Part shown: one piece after another, positions 12,976 to 13,045 of the stretch
Layout: each line of letters starts with the position of its first letter
Numbering within the stretch: position 1 is the first letter of the stretch
Assembly (NCBI GenBank): GCA_014686905.1
Contig: GCA_014686905.1_4093.1
Length of the DNA stretch: 64,000 bases
Reading direction: 5' to 3' (one strand)
DNA from: a phage
Notes under the pieces: generated by a model
Database searches by the model: none
What the model was told of the DNA's origin: nothing
What the model saw: only the letters and a program-made list of their open reading frames with translations
Position numbers and translations under genes: made by a program

Positions 12976-13045
12976 ACTTCCCTCCTTTATTCATTATACT
13001 ATATTTAATCAAAAAGAAAAGCCAGTACTCTGTACTGGCATAATT
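12976..13045 (-). promoter_or_regulatory. inter-paralog cassette: terminator-like hairpin GCCAGTAC...GTACTGGC, -10-like TAAATATAGTATAAT, SD AAGGAGG
   Basis: Same about 70-bp module recurs upstream of almost every array member. Confidence 0.55.

Follow-up and report, generated by a model that had tools for sequence, protein, structure and literature searches.

Recurrent regulatory elements that link one gene to the next have been described in T4-like phages as promoter-early stem-loop (PeSL) cassettes (Arbiol et al. 2010, PMC2839356; Comeau et al. 2014, PMC4122927), and it is in these phages that their role as linkers in modular shuffling has been shown experimentally (PMC2839356, PMC4122927). 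In T-even phages, the polymorphic loci for internal proteins (IPs) likewise have conserved regulatory elements (Repoila et al. 1994, cited through PMC2839356). The late promoters of T4 consist of an 8-bp TATA box with an AT-rich segment downstream and no -35 element (Geiduschek and Kassavetis 2010, PMC2988020), and positions -13/-12 of late promoters vary in phage Aeh1 (PMC2988020). Here we consider a window of 64,000 nucleotides (the whole stretch of phage DNA that was analysed; contig GCA_014686905.1_4093.1) in which a hairpin, a promoter-like box and a Shine-Dalgarno (SD) sequence recur together between the genes of an RCC1-like array, as exemplified by positions 12976-13045. We believe, with a probability of roughly 0.6, that this module is a composite cassette of a terminator, a variant of the T4-type late promoter and a strong SD sequence, and that it doubles as a recombination linker.

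The repeated module of the RCC1-like array

The window belongs to a 121Q/PBECO4-like jumbo coliphage of the genus Asteriusvirus, whose genomes are ~350 kb long. A 12-kb query that covers most of the array matched 37 phage records, all of them Escherichia or Salmonella jumbo phages belonging to the 121Q/PBECO4 group, at 85-96% identity and in gene-sized pieces, with the best single record covering at most 43% of the query. The array (6938..21054, minus strand) comprises 12 genes whose frames start MLPFGRM.KYGN, with ATGs at 21054, 19832, 18651, 17432, 16191, 14929, 14188, 12975, 11791, 10522, 9332 and 8090, and it is oriented divergently from the small plus-strand genes that begin at 21157. RCC1 repeats were found by Pfam in the array genes tested. 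Relatives hold 11-13 RCC1-like genes, and several of the products have been seen in virions by mass spectrometry (phAPEC6, PMC7247149; GAP32 gp001, PMC5259590).

The initial annotation had proposed that a ~70-bp module of hairpin, box and SD recurs between these genes, and the recurrence is firmly borne out. The 20-mer AAATATAGTATAATGAATAA has 9 matches at no more than 3 mismatches where 0.10 are expected, all on the minus strand and all inside the array, and an independent repeat search of the window returned one family with 9 copies of 101 nt. Beyond the window, the module is found at 395 places in 38 phage records. The representative copy fills the 70-nt gap 12976-13045, from the stop of gene 14188..13046 to the ATG at 12975 of gene 12975..11800, and reads aattatGCCAGTACagaGTACTGGCttttctttttgatTAAATAtagTATAATgaataAAGGAGGgaagtATG on the minus strand. 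As had been described, the hairpin GCCAGTACagaGTACTGGC is followed by a T-rich tract, TAAATAtagTATAAT, AAGGAGG and ATG. Specifically, the hairpin (GCCAGTAC aga GTACTGGC, -12.4 kcal/mol) lies at 13021-13039, the T-tract at 13008-13020, TAAATA at 13002-13007, TATAAT at 12993-12998 and the SD core GGAGG at 12981-12985.

The full module (hairpin GCCAGTAC-N3-GTACTGGC, T-tract, TTAAATA-TAG-TATAAT, AAGGAGG, ATG) precedes 8 of the 12 paralogs. Besides the copy before 12975, it occupies, always on the minus strand, 19833..19897 before ATG 19832 (hairpin 19879-19897, TAAATA 19858-19863, TATAAT 19849-19854, SD 19838-19842) and 18652..18716 before ATG 18651, where the stem of the hairpin at 18698-18716 (GCCAGTGC..ATACTGGC) is lengthened by the flanks AAT/ATT and TATAAT (18669-18674) follows TAAATA (18678-18683) after TAC, not TAG (SD 18657-18661). 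It is also found at 17433..17496 before ATG 17432 (hairpin 17479-17496, TAAATA 17458-17463, TATAAT 17449-17454, SD 17437-17441), at 16192..16256 before ATG 16191 (hairpin 16238-16256, TAAATA 16218-16223, TATAAT 16209-16214, SD 16197-16201), at 14930..14993 before ATG 14929 (hairpin 14975-14993, TAAATA 14955-14960, TATAAT 14946-14951, SD 14934-14938) and at 14189..14253 before ATG 14188 (hairpin 14235-14253, TAAATA 14215-14220, TATAAT 14206-14211, SD 14195-14199). The last full copy, at 10523..10586 before ATG 10522, has a hairpin (10568-10586, GCCAGTAC aga GTGCTGGC) whose stem is lengthened by AAA/TTT to reach -15.3 kcal/mol, followed by TAAATA (10548-10553), TATAAT (10539-10544) and the SD (10527-10531).

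The remaining four paralogs limit the original claim that every paralog has its own cassette. At the first array gene (ATG 21054), the box and SD at 21060..21085 stand without a hairpin, with GGTAAATA at 21080-21087, TGATATAAT in extended -10 form at 21071-21079 and the SD at 21060-21064. The variant cassette before ATG 8090 (8091..8155) has its hairpin at 8137-8155 (-14.4 kcal/mol, then T7), an SD at 8096-8100 and a shortened box, CCTAAATATAATAAC, reading TAAATATAATAAC (TAAATA 8119-8124). This variant is nearly constant in JP4, 121Q, UB, PBECO4 and ECO103, with one base fewer in 1/6 copies. Two junctions lack the module altogether and show only an SD adjoining the preceding stop codon. Before ATG 9332 (9333..9344, TAAGGAGAAAATT; also in JP4, UB and 121Q) the absence had been noticed, and was taken for the sole exception, but the junction before ATG 11791 (11792..11799; also in JP4 and UB) is a second one. 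There the stop TAG of 12975..11800 overlaps the SD (TAGGAGGGAAT), and stop and ATG are 8 nt apart (TAGGAGGGAATATG). To judge from this layout, both junctions are translationally coupled. The suggestion that each copy marks an independent unit is therefore partly upheld: hairpin and box occur as pairs, but three units hold two frames each (12975+11791, 10522+9332 and the split 8090/7834).

The module is also longer than the ~70 bp first proposed. Alignment of the inter-paralog regions, the check suggested with that proposal, recovers the shared module except at the two junctions just described, and conservation extends into the coding region, through the first 36 coding nt. This 3' part of the repeat, which for the representative copy consists of the 12 codons ATG TTA CCT TTT GGA AGA ATG GTA AAG TAC GGG AAT, or MLPFGRMVKYGN (12940..12975, minus strand), and elsewhere runs from each array ATG coordinate down to ATG-35, is 91% identical, with the same codons (TTA, CCT, TTT, AGA) in all 11 genes. 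Among 99 family genes of nine Asteriusvirus genomes, the N-terminal codons are fixed in 93-98, and in Hallingskeid (an Erwinia phage) and Munch (a Salmonella phage) the same N-terminal residues are encoded by varied codons. Contrary to the description of all cassette-bearing paralogs as RCC1-like, gene 14929..14261 (minus strand) is glycine-rich and not RCC1-like (phrog_4474, unknown function), yet shares both the 12-residue N terminus and the cassette. Non-RCC1 genes with an M(L/I)PF start likewise lie beside the RCC1 genes of Serratia phage BF and Munch. Because genes outside the RCC1 family bear this start, the N-terminal segment looks like a shared module in its own right, possibly a virion-incorporation tag.

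Two paralogs are not intact. The frame that opens at 10522 (9345-10522, minus strand) stops at 9713, its remaining homology lies in different frames, in ORFs 9492..9662 and 9343..9471, and the break is also annotated as 2-3 coding sequences in JP4, 121Q and UB. From its sequence, this paralog is either a conserved pseudogene or a gene needing frameshifts. The last paralog (6938-8090, minus strand), the end of which overlaps the convergent gene 6295..6957, is split into a 78-amino-acid N-terminal ORF (8102..7866, reading MLPFGRIITSS from ATG 8090) and a 298-amino-acid RCC1-like ORF (7834..6938), as likewise annotated in 121Q (genes 235/234), UB and JP4.

GenBank annotators of UE-S1 labelled some copies of the module as 'repeat_region' and 'terminator'. 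We found no description of the RCC1-array cassette in the literature consulted on 121Q-group phages. At gathering thresholds, Rfam returned no family anywhere in the window, and no tRNAs were found there. In IMG/VR, the 20-mer occurs in multiple copies in 121Q only, and its single occurrences in the other eight contigs are probably chance matches in AT-rich DNA.

Hairpin, box and recombination breakpoints

All nine array hairpins lie 2-12 nt downstream of a co-directional stop codon, with folding energies of -10.3 to -15.3 kcal/mol and T-rich tails of TTTCTTATTT, TTTTCTTTTT or T7 (TTTTTTTG). A consensus terminator scan yielded ten terminator-like sites on the minus strand, and all but a few are array hairpins. 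Hairpin and box are always paired in the array, the sole exception being the first gene, upstream of which no co-directional gene needs terminating. Across 48 distinct hairpins from nine genomes (cassette counts across genomes, here and below, are not phylogenetically independent), the seven core pairs are formed in 96-100%, while loop sequence and length (3, 4 or 8 nt) are free. The stem sequence hardly varies within Asteriusvirus, and covariation there is weak. Munch stems show the compensatory variants CTAGTAC/GTACTAG and ACAGTAC/GTACTGT, and in GAP32 and Serratia phage BF an unrelated hairpin with T7 stands at the same place before the homologous gene. Thus, the order of hairpin, T-tract, box and SD is kept in distant relatives despite unrelated hairpin sequence. 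Because structure persists while sequence changes, this pattern is the one predicted for a terminator and argues against a strictly sequence-specific site, and we infer that the hairpin acts as an intrinsic (Rho-independent) terminator. The strand asymmetry of stem variants compatible with wobble pairing does not separate an RNA hairpin from a DNA palindrome, as the commonest variant, C·A in the pair that closes the loop, points the other way. Nor do CCAGTAC/GTACTGG hairpins occur in the RCC1 array only: one formed from this word on the plus strand, at 6258-6283 (TCCAGTACTattaAGTACTGGA, -15.1 kcal/mol), separates ORFs 5882..6253 and 6295..6957 and is followed at once by an SD and ATG.

The box that follows is not that of a typical early promoter. 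No -35 element is present in the array cassettes at 16-18 bp; TTTCTT or CTTTTC stands 17 bp before TATAAT, and only two copies reach 9/12 in a sigma-70 scan, with CTGGCA/TATAGT. In contrast, ~25 canonical early promoters on the plus strand of the same window, between 26 and 45 kb, have such an element (AAAAAGTACTTGCA or TTGACA, then spacer and TATAAT). Given this difference, the cassette promoter, as read from sequence, is not of the early sigma-70 class of this phage. A TTGACA-17-TACTAT promoter at 21103-21131 is directed away from the array.

Several observations point to a late promoter instead. Across five phage genera TAAATA stays constant, both in 88 cassettes from nine genomes and in Munch, Hallingskeid, GAP32 and BF, whereas the second box drifts among relatives (TATAAC, TATAAA, TATATT, GATATT, TATATA). 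Our statistics on late motifs were collected from the relative 121Q, not from the genome of the window itself. In 121Q, TATAAATA or ATAAATA stands ahead of the genes for capsid, scaffold and baseplate, and the tail-fibre gene also has a late motif, in a promoter (ATAAATAtagtatat) that nearly matches the cassette sequence. Outside the array, 100 kb of 121Q contain 27 copies of ATAAATA, and 21 of these have an SD, an ATG and an open reading frame within 15-60 nt, compared with a gene association of 0-13% for permuted 7-mers. These gene-associated copies lie a median of 34 nt from the ATG, and the TTAAATA of the cassettes lies 32 nt from it. Gene 591 of 121Q is annotated as a late sigma factor. 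Relative to the 8-bp late box TATAAATA, the cassette fits at 6/8 positions, with a constant TAAATA core and AT, GG, GT or CC at -13/-12, and the AT-rich TAGTATAATGAATAAA lies directly downstream. It is because the core is invariant while the second box drifts, and because core and distance match those of 121Q, that we favour a variant of the T4-type late box. The promoter class had been left unresolved, with neither a clean sigma-70 pair nor an exact T4 late box recognized; the class can now be narrowed to a probable late-box variant.

Other promoter assignments were considered and dropped. A T4 middle promoter (MotA-box) reading of GGCTTTC has the wrong spacing, and the 'TGAAACG' motif of the CBB/GAP32 class is absent from the cassettes. 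The RNA-seq paper on PA5oct reports sigma-70-like motifs only. On the plus strand, antisense sigma-70-like hexamers, TTAACA-16-CATAAT (10/12), are formed by the N-terminal codons and the SD-ATG spacer at 9308-9335, 10498-10525, 11767-11794 and 14163-14191, and would yield a short antisense RNA across the 5' leader. Their count is not above that in shuffled sequences, and they may be due to chance.

A role of the module in recombination was missed by the initial annotation. Beyond residue 13, the bodies of the RCC1 paralogs share a mean of 23% protein and 42% DNA identity, whereas the 64-65 nt from hairpin to ATG are 86% identical among array copies, and over the 60 nt upstream of the hairpin identity is back at 42%. 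A recent tandem duplication is rejected as the source of the repeat, since high identity is confined to the module and first codons: the bodies are 17-25% identical in protein (two pairs 35% and 68%), and identity rises to 86-91% only in the module. When the array was compared by BLAST with five relatives, homology came in gene-sized blocks that almost always end at -65 to -75 from the ATG (the hairpin) or at +34 to +51 (the end of the conserved codons). The order of these blocks differs among genomes; for example, the third gene of the window follows the glycine-rich gene in 121Q. Using families clustered by ungapped windows at 80% identity, we examined 76 hairpin-bearing junctions in nine genomes, and of the 15 downstream families shared by two genomes or more, 13 occur behind different kinds of upstream gene. 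With the same clustering, the 4 nt before the hairpin vary with the upstream gene (64% vs 23% identical), whereas it is the downstream gene with which the SD spacer and N-terminal codons vary (22-25% vs 2-7%); the middle of the module varies with neither. One hairpin of 121Q is a chimera whose two halves come from different cassettes of the window, and the pairs without an internal cassette (12975+11791 and 10522+9332) travel together. Because homology blocks end inside the module, and because neighbours differ for 13/15 shared genes, the module behaves, on this sequence evidence, as a linker for modular gene shuffling among related phages.

Weighing the alternatives

In the reading we favour, the module would begin with an intrinsic terminator for the upstream paralog, made of an 8-11 bp hairpin and a U-rich tract. 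Some 13 nt past it would stand a T4-type late promoter variant, in which one of the four dinucleotides above replaces the canonical TA before the TAAATA core and TAGTATAAT provides an AT-rich melting region after it. Host RNA polymerase carrying a gp55-like late sigma factor of the phage would presumably read this promoter, and a strong SD, AAGGAGG, would serve the ATG 4-5 nt further on. With a terminator, a promoter and an SD at each module, most of the virion-associated RCC1-like paralogs would form insulated late transcription units of one or two genes each. Homologous recombination at the module would delete, insert and reorder whole genes among related phages, as the cassette and first 36 coding nt offer ~100 nt of near-identical sequence in all units. 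The terminator, promoter and strong SD proposed at the outset thus agree with the anatomy (stop-adjacent hairpins, T-rich tract, AAGGAGG), and initiation and termination themselves are predictions from that anatomy.

A number of observations weigh against this reading. The boxes of the RCC1 family all lack the A at -12 that is present at nearly all gene-associated late boxes of 121Q; in that genome, TAAATA preceded by a base other than A is gene-associated in only 9/51 cases, and ATTAAATA in 1/5. A perfect sigma-70 -10 element, TATAAT, is kept in ~85% of Asteriusvirus copies, and the copy at the first gene even has TGnTATAAT, the TGn being found in that copy only. In the literature searched, we found no transcript 5' or 3' ends for Asteriusvirus. 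If the cassette does carry a late promoter, it would represent a deviant and possibly weak subclass. With regard to exchange, the identical N-terminal codons also occur in genes that have no cassette, and cassettes are no more alike within genomes than between them (0.815 vs 0.809 for non-orthologous pairs, permutation p = 0.16). Ongoing gene conversion within genomes is therefore not demonstrated, and cassette conservation could derive from purifying selection and exchange between genomes.

The TATAAT box invites the alternative that host sigma-70 holoenzyme uses this -10 element alone, with the AT-rich TAAATA helping or incidental, and that the paralogs are expressed early or constitutively. 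We consider this unlikely overall, although a sigma-70 or dual reading through TATAAT may apply, TGATATAAT at the first gene being an extended -10 element. Moreover, 121Q has a middle-like promoter class, GAnACAAAAC-N9-TGnTATAAT, and, given the short leader, transcription would start immediately ahead of the SD. However, the internal copies have neither a -35 element nor TG at -15/-14, several read TATAAC or TATAAA and have lost the critical T at -7, and in BF and GAP32 the homologous second box is TATATA or GATATT while TAAATA is unchanged. The spacing between TAAATA and TATAAT is also not fixed (3, 5 or overlapping), early promoters in this phage are of a quite different form and the products are virion proteins (PMC7247149). 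It is even less probable that the array has no internal promoters and is read as one long transcript from the first-gene promoter, with the hairpins acting in RNA stability or processing and the box as a 5'-leader or translation element. Two array junctions do work without a cassette, and the arrays of Erwinia phage Hallingskeid and of a Yersinia phage are mostly tightly coupled. Yet a hairpin with a U-tract has the canonical form of a terminator, the only unpaired box is located exactly where a first promoter is needed, the core and ATG distance of the box are shared with the gene-associated late boxes of 121Q, and the cassette stays with its gene beside new neighbours.

The palindrome CAGTACTG, which forms the arms of the array hairpins, is commoner in the window than any other 8-mer (54 copies vs 0.7 expected from base composition). 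Related words are also in excess (AGTACT, 255 vs 22 expected; GTAC, 649 vs 207), and GATC and TCGA are under-represented. Sites of the palindrome include early-promoter spacers, cassette starts and coding DNA, and it is abundant in the replication and structural regions of 121Q (15-18 per 50 kb) and, among the DNA examined, in the distant relatives EJP2 and Hallingskeid. We found no mention of this word in the literature. Its abundance, the crossovers in and around the hairpin, a stem sequence that is almost invariant within Asteriusvirus beyond what pairing needs and a hairpin centre at about -44 from a start downstream of TATAAT (counted on the sequence) would all suit an inverted repeat that is mainly a DNA-level site, such as the operator of a dimeric regulator, a cruciform or a recombinase target, with the terminator shape secondary. 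This explanation is improbable in our view, given that the arms are spaced by 3, 4 or 8 nt, which is awkward for a rigid dimer, that GAP32 and BF have unrelated hairpins at the same position, that the box of the first gene works without a hairpin and that a T-tract on the coding strand always follows the hairpin. A bolder and similarly doubtful proposal is that a phage factor (a structure- or sequence-specific nuclease, or a recombination protein) recognizes the hairpin built from CAGTACTG and actively starts exchange, making the array a dedicated gene-shuffling system for virion surface or internal proteins with a common 12-residue incorporation tag. If true, a lytic jumbo phage would have in this array something comparable in function to an integron or a diversity-generating locus.

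Wider context and comparison with known systems

Other repeats surround the array. On one side, eight tightly packed plus-strand genes of ~104-141 amino acids (3473-6253; phrog_19454, unknown function) form a tandem array, and on the other lie seven plus-strand genes of ~60-75 amino acids (21157-22599), the number of which varies among relatives, with many more in JP4. Further along the plus strand, at 46027-51595 and 62368-63976, a 55-nt segment (…GGTGCATTCTTAGGAACAAACTATCAA…) occurs nine times and one of ~142 nt four times. These repeats probably stem from further small paralog families in the early-type region.

We believe that the favoured reading gives a concrete transcription map, open to test, for the gene family that has expanded most in the 121Q/PBECO4 group. 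These jumbo coliphages are candidates for phage therapy. At least 11 RCC1-like virion proteins of unknown role would come from late units that are insulated from one another. The comparison of genomes also indicates how the family diversifies, namely by exchange, loss and reordering, at a module of ~100 nt, of single genes or of units of two genes. The PeSL principle, in which a regulatory cassette is also a recombination linker, would be extended from the early ORFans of T4-like phages to late structural genes in a distant lineage of jumbo phages. If the promoter subclass (kkTAAATA with a TATAAT-like box) is real, there would be a distinct tier of late or dual-timed promoters in 121Q-group phages.

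Considered part by part, the module resembles well-understood elements. Like intrinsic terminators, the array hairpin contains G+C, has 8-11 bp and a loop of 3-5 nt, and is followed at once by a T-rich tract just past a stop codon; it differs in that the T-tract is interrupted (TTTCTTATTT) and that one stem sequence is reused at every array junction instead of being idiosyncratic. With the gp55-dependent late promoter of the T4 type (TATAAATA), the cassette shares the TAAATA core, the AT-rich segment downstream, the lack of a -35 element and, relative to gene-associated ATAAATA in 121Q, the distance of ~32 nt to the ATG. It also precedes virion-protein genes in a genus that encodes a gp55-like sigma factor. 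The departures from that type are AT, GG, GT or CC in place of TA at -13/-12 and a perfect TATAAT 3 nt downstream of TAAATA.

The genes of IP loci share a conserved N-terminal targeting segment. The 12-residue N terminus of the array, in contrast, shows no sign of being a cleaved targeting peptide. IP loci and the RCC1 array are alike as variable arrays of virion-associated genes, where repeated promoter and stem-loop flanks confine shuffling to the locus, but the IP elements consist of T4 early promoters and weak AT-rich stem-loops (PMC2839356). Lambdoid morons, which that paper also discusses, are comparable in that a gene with its own promoter and terminator forms an autonomous unit; however, morons are unrelated single insertions without conserved flanks, whereas in the array it is the flanks that are conserved and that recombine.

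The closest counterpart is the PeSL cassette. Both are composite elements of up to ~100 bp between open reading frames, with a stop codon, a stem-loop terminator, a promoter, an SD and an ATG. Both occur in many copies in a plastic region, the SD and ATG being at the 3' end of the array module, and in both the breakpoints of insertions, deletions, replacements and reorderings between related phages fall inside the element. The window itself contains a second cassette family on the plus strand (26000-44400), with at least 25 copies before small open reading frames, for example at 27734-27804, 30024-30122, 38785-38872 and 41601-41696. Its parts are an A-tract, AGTACTTGCA or TTGACA, a spacer, (G)TATAAT, GTTTTACATCGAG, a G/C-rich stem-loop (GGGGAGAAATGGTTCTCCCC or GCGGGAAnnnTTCCCGC), an SD and an ATG, and the plus-strand cassettes between 26 and 45 kb match the published PeSL form of a sigma-70 early promoter with a polyG/polyC stem-loop. 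The array module departs from that form in its promoter, which has no -35 element and resembles a late TATA box, not the sigma-70-like early promoter, AT-rich in its upstream region, that defines PeSLs. Its stem is GCCAGTAC/GTACTGGC, not polyG/polyC, its hairpin is always upstream of the promoter, and its homology reaches 36 nt into a shared N-terminal coding segment. Finally, the array genes encode paralogous virion proteins rather than ORFans, and their carrier is a RaK2-like jumbo phage.

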